The translations under genes were made by a program, and so were the position numbers. Positions 35,111 to 44,909 of a stretch of DNA of 64,000 nt are shown here, one piece after another. The number at the start of each line of letters is the position of its first letter. Position 1 is the first letter of the stretch. The notes beneath the pieces are model-generated. The model saw only the letters and a program-made list of their open reading frames with translations. It searched no databases and was not told the DNA's origin. Origin of the DNA: Candidatus Multivorans sp. (GTDB lineage Bacteria; Acidobacteriota; Thermoanaerobaculia; Multivoradales; Multivoraceae); assembly GCA_965224025.1 (NCBI GenBank), contig OZ245033.1, positions 3,968,001 through 4,032,000 on the forward strand. The letters are read 5' to 3'.

Positions 35111-36454
35111 TTACTGACCGCCGCCGGCCGCAGGCGTCGCGGTCGCCGGGGCGTCCTCCGCCTCGGTGACCTGCTCGTCGCCCCGATCCTCCGAGTAGTC
35201 GATGAAGCCGATCATCATCTCGTCGGTGGTCGGACCGCCGAAGCGGATGGCGCGGGTGGTGTCGAGCTCCAGGACAGTGGCTTCGTTCCGCTCCTCGGTG
35301 TTGACGTAGGTCATCAGCACGTCGATACGGGTGCCGGCCGGTATGTCCTTCGGCTCCTTGTAGGTGTAGTTCGCCTGCCAGTTCCAGTCGTAGGCCGGAA
35401 CGTTGAGCAGAACCTCCTCGGTGCCGTCGGGGTAGTACGCGGTGTACTTCGCGTCCAGACCGCGCAGATGGGAGTGCGGCAGGTAGCCGTAGATCGTGGC
35501 GGGGTACTCGAAGACCTTGGAGGCGCCGATCACCCAGTTCTCATGGCCCGGCGGGATCTCGAAGTCGCTGTTGCCGACGCCTTCCCACTTGACGATGCGG
35601 TCGATCTTCGCGTCCTTCGGGTGGAACTTGAAGGCCATCCGGGAGCGATCCCAGACGCCGGTGTCCACGCCCGGCTCCTTGTTGTAGTGCATCGAGAAGT
35701 AGAGCTGGGTGCCCGGCACCAGCAAGCGGCCGGCGCCGTCAGGAAGCTGGAAGGGCTCGGTGCCGGGAGCGATGCCGCCGATCAGGCCCGCGGCACCGGG
35801 CGTCTCGGTCTCGGCGGCGATCCGGGAACCGACGACGTGATGAACCACGTCACTGCCGGGCCGGAACTCGATCGCCTTGATCCAGCGCGGCTCGGAGAGC
35901 ATCTCATCCGTGATCATCTCGGCCTTCAGGCTGATGTTCAGGTCCTTCACGTCGTCGTCGACCCAGAACGGCTCGGCCAGATCGAGCACCAGGTCCGGCT
36001 CGCCGATCAGCCATCCGGTCGGCCACTCGACCGGCGCCGGCGCCTTCGCCGGATCGCCGCGGCGGGCACCCGTGTTGGTCCAGGTGAGAAGCGTGTCGAT
36101 CTCCTCCTGGCTCAGAACCCGCTCGTTCGTGAACTGGCCGTGGGTCTCCTCGCTCGCGAACCAGGGCGGCATCCGCTTTGCCTCCACCTGGCGGGCGATG
36201 CTGCGGGCCCAGGGGCGGGCCTCCTCGTAGGTCGTCAACGCCATCGGCGCCTTCATGCCGCCGTAGGCGACGCCCTCGGGGCGATGGCAGCCCTGACAGG
36301 AGCGCTGCAGGATCGGCTCGACGTCTTCATGGAACGTCACAACGTCCTTGGACGCGTTGGGGCCGGCGGCGAAAGCCGGAGCGGCAGCGACAAGCAGCAC
36401 GGCGACAAGAGCGCAGCAGCGCCAACGGTTGGAAATCACGAGGTTGGAGATCAC
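35111..36454 (-). CDS. Secreted cytochrome c plus copper type II monooxygenase-like protein
   Basis: RBS GGAGG and GTG; signal peptide; CQGCH, MPPW, VVHH, PHSH, DEMM. Confidence 0.8.
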   Translation of the reverse strand: MISNLVISNRWRCCALVAVLLVAAAPAFAAGPNASKDVVTFHEDVEPILQRSCQGCHRPEGVAYGGMKAPMALTTYEEARPWARSIARQVEAKRMPPWFASEETHGQFTNERVLSQEEIDTLLTWTNTGARRGDPAKAPAPVEWPTGWLIGEPDLVLDLAEPFWVDDDVKDLNISLKAEMITDEMLSEPRWIKAIEFRPGSDVVHHVVGSRIAAETETPGAAGLIGGIAPGTEPFQLPDGAGRLLVPGTQLYFSMHYNKEPGVDTGVWDRSRMAFKFHPKDAKIDRIVKWEGVGNSDFEIPPGHENWVIGASKVFEYPATIYGYLPHSHLRGLDAKYTAYYPDGTEEVLLNVPAYDWNWQANYTYKEPKDIPAGTRIDVLMTYVNTEERNEATVLELDTTRAIRFGGPTTDEMMIGFIDYSEDRGDEQVTEAEDAPATATPAAGGGQ

Positions 36455-36547
36455 GAGCGTCCTCCCGGGTCCAGGGTTGCTGGTTGGCGGTTCAGAATCT
36501 TCCGGCAATGTACCACGTCCGGGCTGCTTCGCCCAAACGGAAAGCGC

Positions 36548-36710
36548 TGTCCAACGAGAAGTGATCGTGAGTCGCCGGTGTCGGCGATCATCGGAGAATG
36601 ATCGTGAGGCCACAGACGCACGGTCTAAAGACGCTGGACGACGTACGGGCCTTCCTGGTCGGCAGCGGAGGCGTGGACCTGGAACCCTTGGACCGGGAGG
36701 TCGGCGTACC
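36548..36710 (+). pseudogene. Possible 5' stub of an integrase-type IS transposase
   Basis: ATG 36598 MIVRPQTHGLKTLDDVRAFLVGS resembles N-termini of rve-type IS proteins, from recall only. Confidence 0.3.
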
Positions 36711-36884
36711 GGCGCCCCCGGGACGGTGTTCGAGATCGAGAAGACGAAGGCCGTGACGGTTCCGATCGGCGAGCGCAGCAAGCCGAGGCCGGGAGGTCGG
36801 CCGGGGTTCCTGCGGGGCGAGGTAGTGGACGAGAGAAGGCCGTACAAGGGAGCGCTACCGCTACCAGGACACCATGACCGTCTC

Positions 36885-36986
36885 TTGAGGCAAGTTTCGG
36901 CCAGAGCCATGCATCGACCGTTCGCCCACAGGCAACGGCGAAGTCCGCAAGAACATGCTCGTCGGTCTGAGGCGAAGCCTCGCTGG
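36885..36986 (-). mobile_element. Degenerate copy of the CTAG-ended non-autonomous element
   Basis: TTGAGGCAAGTTTCGGCCAGAGCCATGCATCGA and AACATGCTCGTCGGTCTGAGGCGAAGCCTCGCTGG are reverse complements of parts of 38222-38356. Confidence 0.8.
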
Positions 36987-37013
36987 TATTGGACAAGGAT
37001 GCCTGGCTCGCGC

Positions 37014-37817
37014 TCAACACTGCGCCATCGCCGCAAGCTCCGGCACTCGGCTGCGAAGCCTCCGTCTGAACGCTCCGCTCTCCGTGCAGGCCACGCTCAG
37101 GGTGTCGGCCACGATCGCCTCCAATTCCGGGGGCAGGGGCTCTTCCAGATCCCAGGTCAACGCGTGCACGACGCCGTCCAGGCGCATGTCCAGGCTGATG
37201 CGGCGGCCCCAGCTCCGTCGAAGCCCCAACTCCCATTCGCGCGCTCCGGGGCACGCCTCCCCGTCACCGAGGCGCCCGAAGGACCAGCCCGGGCCGCATG
37301 TGCCTGCCGCGAGACTTTCAAGTTCCGGGACGGTCCACGCCTCCGCCAGGGCACGCATTTGCCCTTCGTTCATCGAATCGCAGAGTGTCGCTTCGTGTTT
37401 CATGTACGTAACGCCTCCGGTCAGGTTGACCTTGAAGCTCTGGAAGGAACCCGCGGGAGCAACTACGTCCAGGCTCAGCAGCTTCTTCGGCCTCCAGCCC
37501 GCTCCCTGGCCGGGGAAGAGGCACACGGGGTCGATGTAGGCGCAGGCCGAGACCGCCAGCAGCGCGGCCGCGGCAGCTAGTCTCCCCAGCGGTAGATGCG
37601 CCTGGAGGCCGCCGCGCAGCGATCCCGTGCTTGGGCTGGCGCCGCCAGATCGGTCCGAGGTGCCGCCATTGGCCCCCGCCTGCAGGCGCCAGCAACCCGT
37701 GCGGAAGGACTCGCTCCTTTGCGCGCTGCGGCACAAGCTGCCAAGTCCGGGGCCGTCTTGTTTGCTGTCAGCGAACCGCGGGCCCATCGCACTGGTGATC
37801 CGGAGGCGAGACCGCAA
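37014..37817 (-). CDS. Hypothetical Cys-containing putative lipoprotein; start uncertain
   Basis: LAAAAALLAVSAC lipobox-like stretch; directly downstream of the PLA2-like gene. Confidence 0.5.
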   Translation of the reverse strand: MRSRLRITSAMGPRFADSKQDGPGLGSLCRSAQRSESFRTGCWRLQAGANGGTSDRSGGASPSTGSLRGGLQAHLPLGRLAAAAALLAVSACAYIDPVCLFPGQGAGWRPKKLLSLDVVAPAGSFQSFKVNLTGGVTYMKHEATLCDSMNEGQMRALAEAWTVPELESLAAGTCGPGWSFGRLGDGEACPGAREWELGLRRSWGRRISLDMRLDGVVHALTWDLEEPLPPELEAIVADTLSVACTESGAFRRRLRSRVPELAAMAQC

Positions 37818-38221
37818 CTTCTACTCCTCGATGGGCCCGGAGGGACACCTCGGGTCAGGCGGGCAGCACGAGGAGGCCCTGCCATGTTCCCCGATGGCTC
37901 TGCACATGTCCGGGTTGCAGAGAGCACACTGCGCCTCTGCGAACTGCTCCAGGTTGAGCGACACGCCAACGAACGCCGCAGTGGCGGCGCTCTCGCACAG
38001 CTTCCTGAACTTCTTGATCTCCGTCTTGCTCGATCCAGCGGCCCTCATGAACACCTCCGCTGCCGTGCATATAGCCAGCAAGTCTCCGTACAACCTCAAG
38101 TCGCACCCCACCTTCAGGCCAAATCCGGGAAACCCCGTGGCACACGACCCCGGTGTTCGCCAGCAAAGGTCGTGGCGGAGGCACGAGTCCAAGAGCGCAC
38201 GGTCCAAGCGGTGCTGCACCA

Positions 38222-38356
38222 CTAGCGAGGCTTCGCCTCAGACCGACGAGCATGTTCCTTGCGGCCTCGGCGGTCGCCCGCGGGCGACGTATCGATGCAT
38301 GGCTCTGGCCGAAACTTGCCTCAACTGTAAAGGTCACGCCTGCTCAAGGTATCTAG
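38222..38356 (+). mobile_element. 135-bp non-autonomous element (MITE-like) bounded by CTAG
   Basis: First 34 nt identical to one end and 39 subterminal nt identical to the other end of the 41435-43295 element. Confidence 0.88.
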
Positions 38357-39435
38357 TGTAGTGTCTCCAACATGGCTTTACTACGTGTAACCTTTGCGAC
38401 GATGCTGTCGGCGGTGGCCGTCCAGACGAACGGCCGGGAGTTTTCGTTGCTGTGGTCCACATAGTCGTAGATGGTCTTTACGAGGTCGTTGACGCTCTGG
38501 AATGCACCGCGCCGGATCGCCTTCGTGGTCAGACCGCCCAGCCAGCGTTCGACCAGGTTAAGCCAGGGCGACGAAGTGGGAATGAAATGGAGGTGGAAGC
38601 GAGGCTTTCGCTCCAGCCATGCGCGCACGGCGGCGTGTTTGTGGGTCTGGTAGTTGTCCAGGATCAGGTGCAGGTCGAGGTGCTTTGGGATCTCACGGTC
38701 GAGACGCTTGAGGAAACGGAGAAACTCCTGGTGGCGCTGCCGGCCCATGCACTCCGCGATCACCGTGCCCTCCAACACGTTCAGCGCAGCGAACAACGTC
38801 GTCGTCCCGTTGCGCTTGTAGTCGTGGGTCATCGTTCCCGCGCGGCCGCGCTTGAGCGGCAAACCCGGCTGGGTCCGGTCCAGAGCCTGGATCTGGCTCT
38901 TCTCGTCCACGCACAGCACAAGCGCATTCTCGGGCGGATTCCGGTACAGGCCCACAACGTCCCGCAGCTTTTCCACGAACCTGGGGTCGTTACTCAGCTT
39001 GAACGTCCTGACCAGATGGGGCTTCAGCCCGTGCGCCGCCCAGATGCGCTGGACCGCCGCCGGACTGATGCCCTGGGCCCGAGCCATCGAACGCACGCTC
39101 CAGTGGGTCTGACCGGGCGGCTTCTCGTGCAGCGTCGCTTCGATCACTTTACGCACGACCGACTCCGAGAGCGGCGGCTTTCCGCAACCGCGGGGACGAT
39201 CCCTGGTCAGCCCCGAAGGCCCGTCCTCCGCGAACCGACGACGCCACAGCAGCACCGTGGGCCGCGAAACTCCGAGTTTCGCCGCGATCGCCCGATTGGC
39301 CGTGCCCTCCGCCGCAGCGAGCACGATCCGGCTACGCCGGACCGTGCGTTGCGGCGTCGTCGGCGCCTCTACGCATTTCTTGAGAAGCGCTCGATCGCTC
39401 TCTTCGATGTCAAGTCGTTCCGCTGGTTCCCACAT
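38353..39435 (-). CDS. IS630 family transposase
   Basis: CVDEKSQIQALDR, THDYKRNGT, ILDNY, WLNLVERW. Confidence 0.95.
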   Translation of the reverse strand: MWEPAERLDIEESDRALLKKCVEAPTTPQRTVRRSRIVLAAAEGTANRAIAAKLGVSRPTVLLWRRRFAEDGPSGLTRDRPRGCGKPPLSESVVRKVIEATLHEKPPGQTHWSVRSMARAQGISPAAVQRIWAAHGLKPHLVRTFKLSNDPRFVEKLRDVVGLYRNPPENALVLCVDEKSQIQALDRTQPGLPLKRGRAGTMTHDYKRNGTTTLFAALNVLEGTVIAECMGRQRHQEFLRFLKRLDREIPKHLDLHLILDNYQTHKHAAVRAWLERKPRFHLHFIPTSSPWLNLVERWLGGLTTKAIRRGAFQSVNDLVKTIYDYVDHSNENSRPFVWTATADSIVAKVTRSKAMLETLH

Positions 39436-39494
39436 GAACGGAATACTGACGAACTTAACCGAAACTGTCAACCCATGTCGGAGACACTACACTA
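38354..39494 (-). mobile_element. IS630-family element with TA duplication
   Basis: TIRs GTGTAGTGTCTCC(A/G)ACATGG (19/20) at 38356 and 39492, each flanked by TA within CTAG. Confidence 0.93.
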
Positions 39495-39851
39495 GTGGGA
39501 GCATCAAGCTACAGCCATCCGGATCAGGCAGCGTCGACTGCTGGATCGACGCCGTCGGTTCGATTGCCCCAATGGGAGCCTCGGAGCGCTCGATATCGAC
39601 GACCAACCACTCGTTGTCTCGATCCTGCGGCGAGACGGCGGTCGCCAAGGCTACGGTGGCGAAGAAGAAAGCGAGAACGCTCAACGGCGTGCGATGGATC
39701 CGAGTCTCTCGGTTCATTGGAGGACCTTCGCTTGTTCAGGCGAGGAGCGTAGCACGCTGGGACAAGGCTCTTCGTGTCGCGGTTCTGGCAGCAACTTGCT
39801 CCCTCTATTGCCCTTGAACGCACGTCAAAGGCGTGAACCCGAGTGCCTAGC

Positions 39852-39895
39852 CTAGACTCCTTGAACAGGCGTGACCTGTCAAGTTTGGCCGAGGG
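39852..39895 (-). mobile_element. Divergent terminus of the CTAG-ended element family
   Basis: CTAGACTCCTTGAACAGGCGTGACCTGTCAAGTT versus CTAGATTCCTTGAGCAGGCGTGACCTTTACAGTT. Confidence 0.7.
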
Positions 39896-40002
39896 ACCTT
39901 GCCAGTTCGGTGCCCGCAAGTCGCCGATGTCTGATCTCTGGATAATGGGATGGTCCGCCCCGCACCTTTTACGGCCTCAGATGGGCCAGGATGGTGTTTT
40001 TT

Positions 40003-41353
40003 GCCTCTTTCGAGTTGCGAGTGGGTAGGGCGCGGGCGAGTGCAGATGCTGAGGGGGTCTTGGGATAGCGGCCTCCGCCGCCGTAGCCGCCGCCGTCGGG
40101 CTGTGGAATCTGCGGAAGACCGGTAGCGGCGAGGGCGCAAGCTGTCCGGTGGGGAGGGCGTTCGCGGCGATTTCGGGTGGCGGCGGTAGTCGCGGGCGAT
40201 CGGAATGAGCAAGACTCGTCTCTCCTGTTCCGACTGAAGGAGGACGAGAGATGCAGAGGGAATTGTTCGCGAGAGCGCTGGGCGTGTCGGCGCCGTGGTT
40301 CGTTGACGGCGTGGACTTCTGTGAGAGGGAGCGTCGGTTGACGATACGGATCGACTTCAGGAAGGGCAGCCGATTCGCCCACGAGGGGGACGGCGGTTCT
40401 CATCCGGTGCACGACACGCAGATCAAGCGCTATCGGCACCTCAACTTCTTCCAGCACGAGTGCCTGCTCGAGGCGCGAGTGCCCCGTGTGCGACTCCCCG
40501 ACCAGCGGGTGGCGTTGGTGACTCCGCCCTGGTCGGGCAGATTGTCCGGCTTCACGCTGCTGTTCGAAGCCTTGATTCTGGCCATGTGCCGAGACATGAC
40601 CTTCGCTGCGGTGGCCCGGTTGACCGGGGTGTCGTGGCATCGGGTGCACGCGATCTGCAAGCGCTACGTCGAGCTGGCGGTCGACCGGGACGACCTCTCC
40701 GAACTGCGCCACGTGGCCATTGACGAGACTTCCCGCGCCAAGGGGCACGACTACGTGACCGCGGTCGCCGACAGCGAGCGCCGGCGCGTGGTGTTCCTCG
40801 CCGAGGGACGCAAGTCCGGCACGATCGAGGAGTTCGCCGACGATCTGCAAAGGCGCGGCGGCGATCCCGCCGCGATCAGCCGGGCGTCCATCGACATGTC
40901 GGCCGCCTTCCTCAAGGGCGTCGCCGAGAATCTCCCCAACGCCGAGGTGACCCTCGACCGCCTCGTCAAGAGGGTCGCCGGCCGACGCACCGCACGCGCC
41001 TGGCTCTACCGGGAGCAGCTTCGCGAAATCCTCAACCGCAAGCAGATCAACGTCGTGCTGCGAATGCTCCATCAGTGGTGCACCAACGTGAACCGCTCCA
41101 AGGTCGAACCCATGAAGGCCGTCGCCCGCACCATCCGAAAGCACCTGCAAGCGATCGCTGCCTGGGCGCGAACCCGGCAGACCAACGGCTTCCTCGAAGC
41201 CCTCAACGGACTCTTCCAGTCCGCCAAACGCAAGGCCAGAGACTACAAGCGATTCGACACCATACGCATCGCCTTCTTCCTCATCGCCGGCAAACTCGAC
41301 TTCCACACGCTCAACCCGCACACGGCCTGACCCACTCGTAATTCAAAAGAGCC
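40003..41353 (+). mobile_element. ISL3-family element
   Basis: IRs GCCTCTTTCGAGTTGCGAGTGGGT / ACCCACTCGTAATTCAAAAGAGCC; 8-bp target repeat TGTTTTTT / TGTTTTTC. Confidence 0.9.
40251..41330 (+). pseudogene. ISL3 transposase with in-frame internal deletion
   Basis: AIDET, SIDMS, TNGFLEALN present; the expected D-x-FH region is missing at VTLD/RLVK. Confidence 0.8.
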
Positions 41354-41434
41354 TGTTTTTCTCCAAACAACAAGGAGGAGGCGGACCGTGGAAGAGATTA
41401 CTCGAGTCGGGATCGATCTGGGGAAGCACGTGTA

Positions 41435-43295
41435 CTAGATTCCTTGAGCAGATTCCTTGAGCAGGCGTGACCTTTACAGTTGAGGCAAGTTTCTGCGGCA
41501 AGTTACCCGCGCTGGTGTTCATGCTGCGAGCGGTTGTCCGATCCAGGCTCTCTGGAGCTCGCGATCATAGGAGGCAAGAGCGCTGCGGATTTTCGAGTTG
41601 GCTTCCGGGTCGCTGGTGGCCGAGAGGACAGGTCCGAGCACTCGTGCGTGCGTTCGGTGGTAGGCGAGAGCGATGCGGAGTCCTTCGGGAGTGAGCCGGT
41701 ACCTCTGGGTGTGGGGAATCCGTTCGATGATTCCCCGCAGACGGAGGCGTCGCAGATCGTAGGTCATGCGGGAAGGCCCGTAGTCCTCCGGTTGGAGTCC
41801 GCACAACCCGGCCACGGTCTGGCGCAGGTCGCGATTGCGGAAGCCCTGCGGCAGCAGGTTGAACCGCAGCAGGGCGGCGAACAGGCCCTGCACTCTTTGG
41901 TCGCCGAAGCGGAGTGCCGAAGCGCGTTGGCCGTTGGCGCAGGTCGGACGGTGCAGGTCGTCGAGCACCTGGGCTCCGATCATGCAGTCGCGGCTGAGAC
42001 GTTGGACGCCGAGCAGGCGTCGATTGGCGGCGAAGCCGATCCTTTCAGATCATCGAGGTTTCTCAGCCGGCGACCGACATCGAAGTCGTAGGTGTCGTTG
42101 ATCACCGTTTCGGTGCGCAGGGCGCGCCCTTCCTTGTAGTACTGCTTGATCCGCGAGTGCTTGTAGTCCACGTGCAACGACGGCGTCACTCCCGAGGTGA
42201 TGACGCGCGTGCGGTACGCCGAGGGCGTGCGGCGGGTGATCCGCCGGTCGAAGATCAACTGAACGTGCTCGGGCCGACCCATGTCGAGGTTTTCCCGCAT
42301 CACCTCCTCGAAGAAGACCCGGCCCTGCAACGGACGGTCGAAGACCTGGGTCAAGGCGAACTCGGCCTGAAGTATCGACAGGTCGTAGCGAATGCCTTGC
42401 CGCCTGTCCCGGGCCGCGAACGGGTGAGGCAGTCGGGCCAGCCACTTGCGCAGCAGCGCATCGATCCTGTCCGCGTCGAGGCTGTCGGCCAACTGCTGCA
42501 TCGCCTCCGGGTCCGAGCAGTGCAGAATGCCGTTGTCCAGCGACTCGTACCTGATCCCCCGCTTGCTCAACTGACGCTTCAGGTACTCGTGGCCGTTGAT
42601 GCACAGCTTCGCGTTGTACGGGAAGTACGAGCAGAACTTCACGAAGAACGGACCGAAGTCATCGTCGAACGCGTAGAAGTAGTAGTGGTTCACCATCGCC
42701 GTCGAGTCCGTCAACCACGGATACCAAACGCCCGACGAACTCTGGCGGCGCCGCGAGCGCAACACCCGAGCCTTCTCCTGGGCCTTGCCGATGTACAGCA
42801 CACCCTCCCCACCGCGCCACTGGCGAAGGAACTCCCGGGTACGGTCGTCTTTCCGCTCGCCGCGCCGGAACGAGACGATCTCGACCCGGTGCTGCCTCGC
42901 GTAGCCCTTGATCGCCGCCACGAAGCGCCTCGTCATCGGCGCCATCAGTACCGACGACGGCACCTGCCAGCCCTGCAACTCCCGGAAGAACCAGGCCGCG
43001 CCGACGCCCCGCTGAAGCAGCGGAACATAGACGTTGAGGTACATCCTGTCGACGCTCTCAAGCGTCAACGACGTGTGATCCGAAAGAACCTCGGCTACGC
43101 TGCGTGCTACCTTCATGGACGGACTCCGGTCGATGGGCTCCTCACCGGCCAGCATACGGCCACCTTCGCCCATGAGCGACTATCGAGGCGGATTCTCTCC
43201 GCGGCTGGAGCAGCGCCCGGGGTCCGATCAAGCTCAGACCCACAACCAGACACCGCCCAGTACATGCTCGTCGGTCTGAGGCGAAGCCTCGCTAG
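41435..43295 (-). mobile_element. CTAG-bounded element with non-inverted ends encoding a putative transposase
   Basis: CTAG at 41435-41438 and 43292-43295; ends shared with the 135-bp copy; one long ORF inside. Confidence 0.82.
41519..43116 (-). pseudogene. Putative transposase (about 530 aa) with C-terminal winged HTH; -1 frameshift near 42045
   Basis: Frames join as NLDDLK/RIGFAANRRLLGVQRLS; DRMYLN, IKQYYKEGRALRTETVIN, YDLRRLRLRGIIERIPHTQRYRLT. Confidence 0.75.
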
Positions 43296-43297
43296 CG

Positions 43298-43759
43298 TTA
43301 GCCCAGGACTTCGACGACCAGGTACTCGCCCTCGCGGATGACCGGGTAGGTCTCGGCCGTGTACGGCCCCTTGACCATGCCCGGGGCCGGGGCCTCGGGG
43401 TCTTCGATCGGGGCCTCGGCGAGTTCCTCCCCGGCGACCGTTTCGACTTCGTAGCGACGCACCCGCAGTCGTTCGGGCGCGCACCAGGACTGGCCGGTGC
43501 GGACGTGGAACTCCCAGCCGTGCCAGGGACAGCAGAGGATCTCGCGGCTCGGGCGGTACTCGAAGGCGCCGGGACGCTCGGAACGGAGGACGCCCCAGAG
43601 CTTGCCCTCGCACAGCTTGCCGCCCTGGTGCGGGCAGCGGTTGCGGAGCGCGAAGAACTCGCCGTCGAGATTGAAGATGCCGATCGAGCGGCCGGCGACG
43701 GTCACGATCTTGCGGCCGCCCGATTCGATCTCGGACGCCTCGGAGACGACGTACTTCAT
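43298..43759 (-). CDS. Rieske (2Fe-2S) ferredoxin
   Basis: CPHQGG and CPWHGWEF. Confidence 0.92.
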   Translation of the reverse strand: MKYVVSEASEIESGGRKIVTVAGRSIGIFNLDGEFFALRNRCPHQGGKLCEGKLWGVLRSERPGAFEYRPSREILCCPWHGWEFHVRTGQSWCAPERLRVRRYEVETVAGEELAEAPIEDPEAPAPGMVKGPYTAETYPVIREGEYLVVEVLG

Positions 43760-43799
43760 GCGCGGATCGCCTACGCCGAGATCGAGCCCCGCGAATGCC

Positions 43800-44909
43800 C
43801 TAGAGCCCGTAGAGGGCGCGCGCGTTCTCGGACTGGATGCCGCGGACGAGATCCTCGTCGAGCCCCGACGGGAGCACGACATCTGGATTGTCGCCGTCCC
43901 AGTGCGGGTAGTCGCTGGCGATCAGGATGTGGCTTGCCAGGCCGCCGAAGTGCTCGATCAGAGCCAGGAAGTCCCGGCGCCTGGGCGGCTCCTCGATCGG
44001 CTGCGTGGTCACGTAGACGTGCTCGGAGATGACCTCCGACGGCAAACGCCCAAGATGCGGCGCTTCCTCACGCAGCAGACTCCAGGCGGAGTCGAGGCGC
44101 CAGATCAGGGGCGGCAGCCAGGCGAAACCGTTCTCGACCGAGATCATCCGCAGGCTCGGGAAGCGGTCGAACGCGCCCTCGACGACCATGCTGGTGATGT
44201 TCGCCTGCACCGCCTGCGGCGGGCTCGTGTGGTCCTCGATGTAGTACGAGGCGTGGCCGGCGCCGGTGATCGGGTGACCGTAGGCGCCGAAGGCGTGCGA
44301 GGCGACGTGCATTCCGGTCTCGGCGCAGGCCTCGTAGATCGGCCAGTACTTGCGGCGGCCCATCGGCTCCTGCATCCGTCCCAGGAACAACACCTGGACG
44401 AAGCGACCGTCGGCGCCGCAGCGCCGTATCTCCGCCGCCGCGGCGACCGGGTCCTGCGGAGTCACGACCACGGACGCGCGCAGCCGCGGCTCGGGGTCGA
44501 GCCACTCGGCGATCTGCCAGTCGTTGGCGGCGGTGGCAAGCGCCGCGCCGAGTTCCAGGTCGAGCGCCGAGGTCACAGGCGTCAGCGGGTTCAGGATGGC
44601 GTACTCGACGTTGTACGGATCGAGGAAGTCCTCGGCGGCGAAGCCGACTTCCGAGCCGGGGGTGCGGCCTGACGGCGGCCGCGCCTCCTCGCGATGGTCC
44701 ATGAAGCGCGGGTAGTAGCCGCTGTTCGGGTGGCGCACGCCGAAGGTCTTGAGGTGGTTGCGCCAGCGCTTCGACAGATACGGGTAGAGGTCCTTGATCG
44801 AGTCGAGCTCGTTGTGGAAGTCGCAGTCGATGATCGGCGGTCGCTTCGGCGCCACCGCGGTAGGAAGCGCCGAGGCCTCCGTGGATGGCTCGATCAGGGT
44901 GACGGTCAT
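43800..44909 (-). CDS. Amidohydrolase_2 family protein
   Basis: IDCDFH, ENGFAWLP, ASDYPHWD. Confidence 0.9.
   Translation of the reverse strand: MTVTLIEPSTEASALPTAVAPKRPPIIDCDFHNELDSIKDLYPYLSKRWRNHLKTFGVRHPNSGYYPRFMDHREEARPPSGRTPGSEVGFAAEDFLDPYNVEYAILNPLTPVTSALDLELGAALATAANDWQIAEWLDPEPRLRASVVVTPQDPVAAAAEIRRCGADGRFVQVLFLGRMQEPMGRRKYWPIYEACAETGMHVASHAFGAYGHPITGAGHASYYIEDHTSPPQAVQANITSMVVEGAFDRFPSLRMISVENGFAWLPPLIWRLDSAWSLLREEAPHLGRLPSEVISEHVYVTTQPIEEPPRRRDFLALIEHFGGLASHILIASDYPHWDGDNPDVVLPSGLDEDLVRGIQSENARALYGL

Follow-up and report, generated by a model that had tools for sequence, protein, structure and literature searches.

What is the 135-bp stretch at positions 38222 to 38356 of a 64,000-nucleotide window from the genome of Candidatus Multivorans sp. 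(Acidobacteriota; contig OZ245033.1, positions 3,968,001 to 4,032,000), and how did it come to lie there? By the window we mean this whole stretch of DNA, whose coordinates are used below unless contig C1 of the genome is named. An initial annotation, made from the letters alone, took the 135 bp for a non-autonomous derivative of a longer mobile element with a CTAG target. We find that this short sequence, hereafter the mini element, is almost certainly a mini derivative of an insertion sequence (IS)-like element of about 1.85 kb, that it belongs to the parent family described below, and that its target is CTAG. The explanation that best covers the observations as a whole, in which such a derivative is moved in trans into CTAG by a nuclease with a TATA-binding protein (TBP) fold, is probable, with a smaller measure of confidence. 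The mini element and its parent-type element are laid out as follows (here and below a slash marks the junction between element and flank).

Positions 38222 to 38356, plus strand: mini element, 135 bp, non-autonomous; left end at 38222 and right end at 38356; its ends match those of the long element exactly; the genome has 12 related copies.
Positions 38222 to 38255, plus strand: left-end core, CTA/G, then the hairpin GAGGC-TTC-GCCTC (38227-38239), then AGACCGACGAG; 34 of 34 letters identical to 43262-43295.
Positions 38273 to 38288: perfect palindrome of 16 nt within the middle segment, which is the mini element's own; read from the sequence.
Positions 38311 to 38356, plus strand: right end, box A (AAACTTGCCTCA, 38312-38323), a variable spacer and box B (CTCAAGGTATCTA/G, 38343-38356); both boxes kept in 35 aligned right ends.
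Positions 41436 to 43295, minus strand: parent-type element, 1860 bp, left end at 43295 and right end at 41436.
Positions 36885 to 36986, minus strand: diverged, truncated mini copy found by the 34-mer search and BLAST; its left end begins CCAG and its right end is missing.

The mini element shares both of its ends with the long element and nothing in between. Its first 34 nt (38222-38255) recur at 43262-43295 on the minus strand without a mismatch, and 39 subterminal nt (38311-38349) recur at 41455-41493, also on the minus strand and also without a mismatch, bearing out the two identities claimed in the initial annotation; the 34-mer has a further match, with one mismatch, at 36953-36986 (minus strand), and shuffled-sequence controls gave no match for either word. 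The two exact matches are the two ends of the 1860-bp stretch 41436-43295, which has CTAG at its start and at its end. The claim of a distinct middle with a hairpin of its own held as well, since this part has no BLAST match to the long element and contains the palindrome at 38273-38288; in other mini subfamilies the inverted repeat at about this place is a different one, shorter or imperfect (read by eye). Terminal inverted repeats are absent, and the two ends are unrelated to each other both in the window and among 54 left-end and 35 right-end sequences. In size and copy number the minis resemble MITEs (miniature transposable elements with inverted repeats), being non-coding, 124-135 bp long and present in 12 copies, with ends in common with a 1860-bp element. 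Judged by its letters, then, the mini element behaves like a MITE or a palindrome-associated transposable element (PATE) but is not an inverted-repeat element.

The distribution of copies in the genome (5.14 Mb, 67.6% G+C), searched by BLAST with the mini element, points to past movement into CTAG. The 12 mini copies (124-135 bp) lie at different loci, 10 of them with CTAG at both ends, one with CTGG at the left, and one the truncated copy that begins CCAG; copies of a 125-bp subfamily are 96-99% identical to one another. Because CTAG is rare in this genome, with 2311 sites against 15426 expected from base composition (about 6.7-fold under-represented), the CTAG boundaries are not a matter of chance. 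The long element is present in two copies that are 100% identical over 1846 bp; the second lies elsewhere, head-to-tail behind a mini copy, with a single CTAG common to both. Further relics in the genome are a decayed third long copy and a solo left end.

The initial annotation had also noticed that the mini element interrupts a gene, together with a second element nested in it:

Positions 37821 to 38225, minus strand: distal part of the host gene (cysteine-rich, secreted-type protein; no family hit).
Positions 38356 to 39492, minus strand: IS630-family element, 1137 bp, in the TA of the mini element's right CTAG; DDE_3 and helix-turn-helix domains, 13-bp perfect inverted ends.
Positions 39496 to 39717, minus strand: proximal part of the host gene (start codon, signal-like N-terminus).

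Excising 38226-39495 in silico takes out the body of the mini element together with the IS630 element, one CTAG and one TA. A single CTAG and the motif CCACTAGTGG remain, and the minus strand then has an open frame of 208 aa. This frame aligns without a gap at the junction to four homologous frames that are 44-54% identical to it (two paralogues in one same-genus genome, one frame in another, and one paralogue in this genome), so the in-frame restoration with a single CTAG stands. Retaining three of the four CTAG letters gives a frameshift and a stop codon, from which it follows that the unoccupied host site held CTAG. A second empty site comes from related genomes, where the copy at C1:1478020-1478153 is exactly absent from a same-genus genome whose flanks are adjacent and 90-91% identical in a DNA alignment. 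Four more same-genus genomes are without this copy, with a more diverged intergenic region, and a fifth, G024, has unrelated sequence where it would be. Two other copies offered no usable orthologous site: the one at C1:1180341 has the end of an IS110 copy directly on its left, and at C1:1266441 the right flank consists of repeats that are rearranged in relatives. Scanning metagenomes for empty sites with a 24-nt left flank gave 0 matches, and the joint 38225-39496, the empty form of the window copy, was not among the 15 of 49 joints listed for contigs of public runs, which is no evidence of its absence. Together, the 10 of 12 minis bounded by CTAG, the restored gene and the empty site in a sister genome support what the initial annotation had proposed on non-autonomy, past mobility and the CTAG target.

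The parent family extends far beyond this genome. It comprises at least 8000 clusters at 90% identity (8000 of 8000 scored candidates matched), with 11019 representatives at 50% identity at E<=1e-3 and 1236 at E<=1e-30; 582 of 594 pattern matches in species genomes were confirmed, and many homologues lie on contigs of about 1.8 kb. Neither the ORF pieces of the window nor 26 diverse members down to 29% identity gave a transposase hit in Pfam or NCBIfam, the only rows being weak winged-helix ones. Where the family matches plasmids of Rhodococcus, Burkholderia, Caballeronia and Mycobacterium, the underlying features are termed 'hypothetical protein' or 'uncharacterized protein' or are unannotated; a RefSeq plasmid record of Caballeronia, for example, labels the family protein 'hypothetical protein'. 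Full-text literature searches found no description of the element family. Small derivatives that depend on proteins supplied in trans are a familiar kind of element; the novelty is the family, which is very widespread, is in no Pfam or NCBIfam IS model and, on the literature and these two databases (ISfinder being outside the comparison), appears to be undescribed.

Comparison across the family locates the element's boundaries to the letter. Related loci were retrieved with an alignment of 8 closer members, and 80 of them were examined, from Acidobacteriota classes, Gamma-, Alpha- and Betaproteobacteria, Actinomycetes, Chloroflexota, Planctomycetota and others (by record titles). The left-end motif CTA-R-CGAGGC-NNN-GCCTC-AGACCGACGAG is present in 75 of the 80 loci, its fourth letter being A in 46 and G in 29 and the base before CTA being unbiased (A 27, C 16, T 16, G 16). 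The right end, located in 54 loci, reads AAACTTGACTCA, about 22 variable nt, then TCAAGGANTCTA, with G as the next base in all 54. Within one genome, copies are identical exactly up to these boundaries. Since the left junction is CTAA in 46 of 75 loci and the right one is CTAG, the fourth base at the left belongs to the element, which excludes a 4-bp duplication of CTAG for the family and allows at most CTA to be repeated. The initial annotation had suggested that insertion 'duplicates CTAG or recombines through it'; the first half of that suggestion fails on the CTAA junctions, and only CTA or TA is a candidate for a duplication or for a crossover core. In the lineage of the window the element's first base is G, and the boundaries therefore resemble a CTAG repeat.

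The left flanks have a peculiarity of their own. Among loci L008-L087, 21 of 74 distinct insertions have at least one extra CTA word within 14 nt upstream of the left end, and some of these words repeat the element's first letters, as in L084 with three CTAGC-type units; right flanks show extra CTA words much less often (by eye). The extra upstream words may be a stutter or footprint of the reaction.

Which parts of the element are needed in cis? The proposal that the termini are the minimal cis elements gains support from two sides, the conservation of the ends and the composition of still smaller derivatives. First, relatives from many phyla keep roughly the outermost 30 nt at the left and 45 nt at the right (54 distinct left ends, 35 right ends); the 135-bp mini element retains 34 nt at its left end and about 46 at its right. 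Second, a 66-bp derivative at C1:1209210-1209275, lying head-to-tail behind a 125-bp mini copy with one CTAG between them, has no more than about 30 nt from the left end and about 37 nt from the right. A gammaproteobacterial genome has the left-end motif 18 times, and 10 extra sites examined there comprise seven 97-bp minis (each composed of 30 nt from the left end, roughly the final 20 nt of the ORF and a right end), one 113-bp mini of another subfamily, one degraded right end and one full-length type. All minis of that genome with a recognised right end read CTAG...CTAG with differing flanks, and two minis stand head-to-tail in front of full copies. In two other genomes the extra left-end sites were of full-length type in 8 of 8 cases. 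As minis recur in separate genomes, gene-less derivatives are a recurrent feature of the family, and they agree on the parts that are retained.

The candidate for moving these derivatives is the single ORF of the long element, which in the window is split:

Positions 41983 to 43173, minus strand: ORF part 1, 397 aa, predicted TBP/Rep_trans-like domain of the family protein of about 533 aa.
Positions 41519 to 41983, minus strand: ORF part 2, 154 aa, winged-helix domain, separated from part 1 by a one-base loss.

Alignment to intact 533-aa homologues places the loss of one base near 42041-42043, between ...DDLK and ...IGFAANRR. The ATG of ORF part 2 overlaps the stop of part 1 (ATGA, 41980-41983), as in coupled gene pairs. 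A full-length AlphaFold2 model was made for a homologue that is 85% identical to the window ORF over residues 1-359 (predicted local distance difference test, pLDDT, 87.2); the model of the window's first ORF has a pLDDT of 87.8. The first 378 or so residues are predicted to form long antiparallel strands in two lobes, and residues of about 382-508 match PadR/MarR/HxlR winged-helix regulators (Z 9.0-9.5, root-mean-square deviation, rmsd, 2.2-3.2, 88-97 residues aligned). For the N-terminal domain the structural matches are:

TBP 1MP9: Z 7.9, rmsd 4.1, 171 residues aligned.
Two further TBPs: Z 7.0, rmsd 3.7-3.9, 165-167 residues aligned.
RepDE 4CWC: Z 6.9, rmsd 5.0, 182 residues aligned.
RepSTK1 4CIJ: Z 6.6, rmsd 4.4, 184 residues aligned.

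The top four rows of a Foldseek search are the four chains of 4CIJ (E 4.9e-4 to 2.2e-3, probability 0.84-0.97), and a search of the ESM Atlas with residues 1-380 gave only unnamed clusters with scores of 0.77-0.81. The family protein is thus predicted from its models to combine a TBP/Rep_trans-like fold with a C-terminal winged helix. Invariant or near-invariant polar residues are D23/R24, E114, Y147/Y149/D152, N175/H177, N196, Q251/E253, K325/Y327/K329, R335/E337 and D345; several conserved pairs are spaced two residues apart on strands and so should face one side of the sheet. K325, Y327 and R335 are invariant and K329 and E337 nearly so, all on two neighbouring strands of the model. Y327 (numbering of the 533-aa homologue) is a candidate nucleophile; D23, E114, E337 and D345, invariant or nearly so, are candidate acidic metal ligands. 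Profile searches for Rep_trans (PF02486) and Rep-Arvir (PF25227) found no match in the two ORF pieces of the window, nor, for the 26 members at E<=1, among the 25 of 26 families listed; no Y1_Tnp/HUH, DDE_3, DEDD/Transposase_20, serine-recombinase or tyrosine-recombinase domain was found in the long-element ORF or in family members (Pfam, NCBIfam).

Rep_trans nucleases are described as having a TBP fold with the catalytic tyrosine in a YxxK context; in the archaeal Rep-Arvir initiators, whose essential residues are E25, Y283 and E303, a TBP-like domain is combined with a winged helix that is MarR-like (PMC13107129). On that description, Rep-Arvir proteins have the architecture predicted for the family protein, a nuclease domain followed by a winged helix of MarR/PadR type. 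More widely, the family resembles the Rep_trans initiators (pT181 RepC/RepD, RepDE 4CWC, RepSTK1 4CIJ), the MOBT relaxases and Rep-Arvir in a two-lobed TBP-like fold that is predicted at middling scores, in a candidate tyrosine within a basic strand motif and in a hairpin beside the presumed nick site. It differs from this group in that no sequence similarity is detectable, in that its gene belongs to a chromosomal multi-copy element of 1.8 kb that has fixed ends and a fixed target word, rather than to a plasmid, virus or conjugative element, and in that no replication or transfer genes accompany it.

How might such a protein move the mini element? The minis must depend on supply in trans, from the family's single protein of about 533 aa, and their ends are asymmetric, with CTA/R, a hairpin with a 5-bp stem and AGACCGACGAG at the left and AAACTTGNCTCA, a spacer and TCAAGGANTCTA/G at the right. 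In the scheme that we propose, the product of the single ORF would act as the transposase, and its C-terminal winged helix would guide it. At the left junction (flank CTA/R of the element) one strand would be nicked after CTA, and at the right junction (CTA/G of the flank) the nick would follow the last CTA of the element; both ends would then be linked to form a circle or a rolling-circle product that has ...TCTA-RCGAGG... at its junction, and this intermediate would be pasted into the CTA/G of a target CTAG, so that CTA comes to stand on both sides. The logic is that of IS608-type elements, but the enzyme here is unrelated. Such a scheme reproduces every junction seen, restores the donor CTAG and explains head-to-tail arrays with one common CTA(G), which occur in this genome, in other genomes and on one metagenome contig; a joint of right end to left end in a contig of one run is indistinguishable from a tandem array. 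We put the tyrosine-nuclease chemistry of nicking and joining at CTA at about even chances. That the parent represents a further class of transposon, in which a TBP-fold, Rep_trans-like tyrosine nuclease cuts after CTA and moves a single strand into CTAG, is a tentative reading to which we give slightly less than even chances. The enzyme of this further class would be unrelated to the DDE, DEDD, HUH, serine-recombinase and tyrosine-recombinase enzymes, and the 135-, 97- and 66-bp derivatives would define its full need in cis as about 30 nt at the left and 40 nt at the right.

The known systems closest to this scheme in logic are the IS200/IS605 elements, whose HUH Y1 TnpA moves a single strand by 'peel and paste' and whose mini derivatives are the PATEs. 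Those elements and ours have asymmetric ends without inverted repeats, a hairpin near the left end, gene-less derivatives that consist of the ends, a cleavage word of 3-4 nt beside the left end with another at the extreme right end, and no long target duplication. Unlike IS200/IS605, the family described here has a protein of about 533 aa without a Y1_Tnp/HUH match and with a predicted TBP-like fold and winged helix, CTA at both junctions, a palindromic CTAG target, no conserved right-end hairpin and no orientation bias. IS91/ISCR elements and Helitrons are HUH Y2 rolling-circle transposons, and the abstract of the Replitron paper names three Rep-mobilised groups, all of them HUH. IS91/ISCR elements, Helitrons and our elements have in common that the two ends differ, that the target is a tetranucleotide and that tandem or read-through products occur, but the enzyme fold here is unrelated, the elements vary very little in size and ends, and captured flanking DNA was not seen.

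Several observations weigh against the explanation that we favour. Folded as DNA, the whole 135-nt mini element is no more stable than its shuffles on either strand (z 0.27 and -0.06), and RNAalifold gave no consensus structure for 35 right ends. In 54 distinct left ends the hairpin is paired throughout (270 of 270 cells), with a freely varying loop, but compensatory changes occur in 2 of its 5 pairs and in 3 sequences only, which is thin covariation, and the pattern equally fits a palindromic double-strand binding site. Relative to cumulative GC skew, 8 copies are co-directional and 9 opposed, on an irregular curve, with no sign of a lagging-strand preference. Two sites depart from CTAG: the empty site for C1:1478020-1478153 reads CTGG in the sister genome, and one mini copy has CTGG at the left and CTAG at the right. 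As for the protein, the N-domain fold scores are middling, with Z below 8, and such values can reflect a common arrangement only; an hhalign comparison with pT181 RepC (probability 0.14) gave no link to Rep_trans at the level of sequence, and a sequence profile search of the PDB returned noise, with ribosomal protein S2 at E 0.04. Finally, no intact parent gene was found in this genome by tblastn, and in both parent copies the frameshift falls exactly between the nuclease-like domain and the winged helix.

Some of these points fit equally well a reading that keeps the same family and the same protein and lets them move double-stranded DNA, either by cut-and-paste with a 2- or 3-nt stagger in CTAG (a TA or CTA duplication) or by conservative recombination of a circle junction through a CTA core, with the TBP-like domain as a new scaffold. 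A duplication of CTA or TA and a common nick site look alike in sequence; a palindromic target and a palindromic left-end motif fit a dimeric binder of double-stranded DNA; there is no orientation bias with respect to GC skew; and head-to-tail arrays are to be expected of any element that seeks CTAG. Strongly asymmetric ends without terminal inverted repeats are nevertheless unusual for cut-and-paste enzymes that treat both ends alike, the best structural matches include initiators that nick a single strand, and no DDE, serine-recombinase or tyrosine-recombinase domain was found. We consider this reading unlikely, while giving it real weight.

An IS110-type system guided by a bridge RNA, with the minis moved by the genome's IS110 recombinases, is far less credible. 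IS110 elements have no inverted repeats and carry a short repeated core at both ends, and the genome has 32 matches to the IS110 DEDD domain. These matches, however, lie elsewhere than the long-element ORF, which has neither a DEDD nor a Transposase_20 domain; BLAST with the mini and long elements matched only each other's copies and remnants; the same ends accompany the 533-aa ORF in genomes of many phyla; and no Rfam family was found within 36000-44000 at E<=1, where the only row was a chance match to RsmY outside the element.

Mobilisation by an IS630-family transposase, which would make the mini element an ordinary Tc1/IS630-type MITE, is suggested by the company that it keeps, and is more improbable still. 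The nested IS630-type element is flanked by TA repeats at 38354-38355 and 39493-39494, all six full-length IS630-type copies in the genome read CTA/IS/TAG with TA repeated, and the end of one adjoins the left CTAG of a second mini copy, at C1:5017763. The mini family thus shares with IS630/Tc1/mariner elements and their MITEs a CTAG/TA target, shown for the nested element, and an abundance of minis. In contrast to those elements, the parent has neither terminal inverted repeats nor DDE_3, both of which belong only to the nested element at 38356-39492; the mini element too is without terminal inverted repeats and has nothing like the IS630 ends (GTGTAGTGTCTCC...), and both of its ends are those of the long element, kept across phyla together with an ORF of its own. 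Mini and long copies carry CTAG at each boundary and so offer sites for IS630-type insertion. That the mini element is a non-mobile, dispersed regulatory or REP-like repeat (repetitive extragenic palindrome) spread by recombination, as its small size, its internal palindrome and the mostly intergenic location of the copies might suggest, is barely conceivable and is refuted by the empty sites, with the host frame restored on exact removal and one copy exactly absent from its orthologous site, and also by boundaries that are always CTA/CTAG and ends that are those of a protein-coding element.

Under the reading that we favour, movement in trans by the TBP-fold protein, the state of the parent gene bears on whether minis can move today. 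The split lies at residue 359 in both long copies, apart from which tblastn found only a relic in this genome. A short-read contig from one public run agrees with the window in every letter from 41464 to 42463, with a depth of 82.7 against 43.1 in neighbouring unique sequence, about twofold, so that the frameshift is real and no assembly error. An extra base behind 42043 restores the frame, and it was seen in all four runs:

Run X7: extra base in 398 of a total depth of 622.
Run X9: extra base in 857 of a total depth of 1047.
Run X1: extra base in 411 of a total depth of 433.
Run X11: extra base in 166 of a total depth of 259.

These shares imply that intact relatives exist in the community, not in this genome. 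Because the same one-base loss separates the nuclease domain from the winged helix in both parent copies, the minis are probably immobile at present unless an intact copy is supplied from elsewhere.

The mini element turns a family of 'hypothetical proteins' into a testable transposon system, since it reveals the roughly 75 nt needed in cis, the target word, and a junction that is CTA and not CTAG. If chemistry of the Rep_trans type proves true, transposition of the rolling-circle type would have one more origin, in a nuclease fold hitherto found in plasmids, phages, conjugative elements and archaeal viruses. Annotation is affected too: elements of this family, minis included, interrupt genes, are a source of the scarce CTAG sites to which IS630-type elements are drawn, and cause metagenome assemblies to break up.

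The surroundings of the long copy in the window have features of their own. Its right end carries a 13-nt tandem duplication, ATTCCTTGAGCAG (plus strand), at about 41440-41465, which doubles the conserved box beside the terminal CTA; the second long copy in the genome is without it. A 16-residue reading frame at 41388-41435, with a Shine-Dalgarno-like GGAGG upstream, ends at the CTAG where the long element begins; a likeness of this peptide to IS110-type N-termini was unsupported, a tblastn search of the genome giving only its own site at a meaningful E-value. Between the IS630-type element and the long copy lies a further remnant:

Positions 39850 to 39893, minus strand: solo, diverged right-end-like remnant that starts at CTAG, recognised by eye against the right-end alignment, with a weak BLAST match to the right end of the second long copy.

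The unique sequence that follows this remnant is split by an ISL3-family element (about 40000-41355; transposase 40251-41330). In two public runs a related form is present that lacks the ISL3 part and has 25 different letters where 39969 is joined to 41354 (depth 360 in X7); the stretch 39850-41439 thus belongs to some further repeat.

Elsewhere in the genome, the 32 matches to the IS110 DEDD domain fall mostly into two families of 13 and about 15 near-identical copies. Cumulative GC skew along contig C1 is flat and noisy from 0 to 2 Mb, rises to 3.46 Mb and falls to 5.0 Mb, giving no clean two-arm curve, which may reflect rearrangements in a repeat-rich genome. To the right of the mini copy in locus L108, positions 822-878 and 1092-1164 of that locus (C1:1180462-1180804) have matches of 85-97% identity at many places in the same-genus genomes searched, and these two stretches may be other small repeats or RNA genes.

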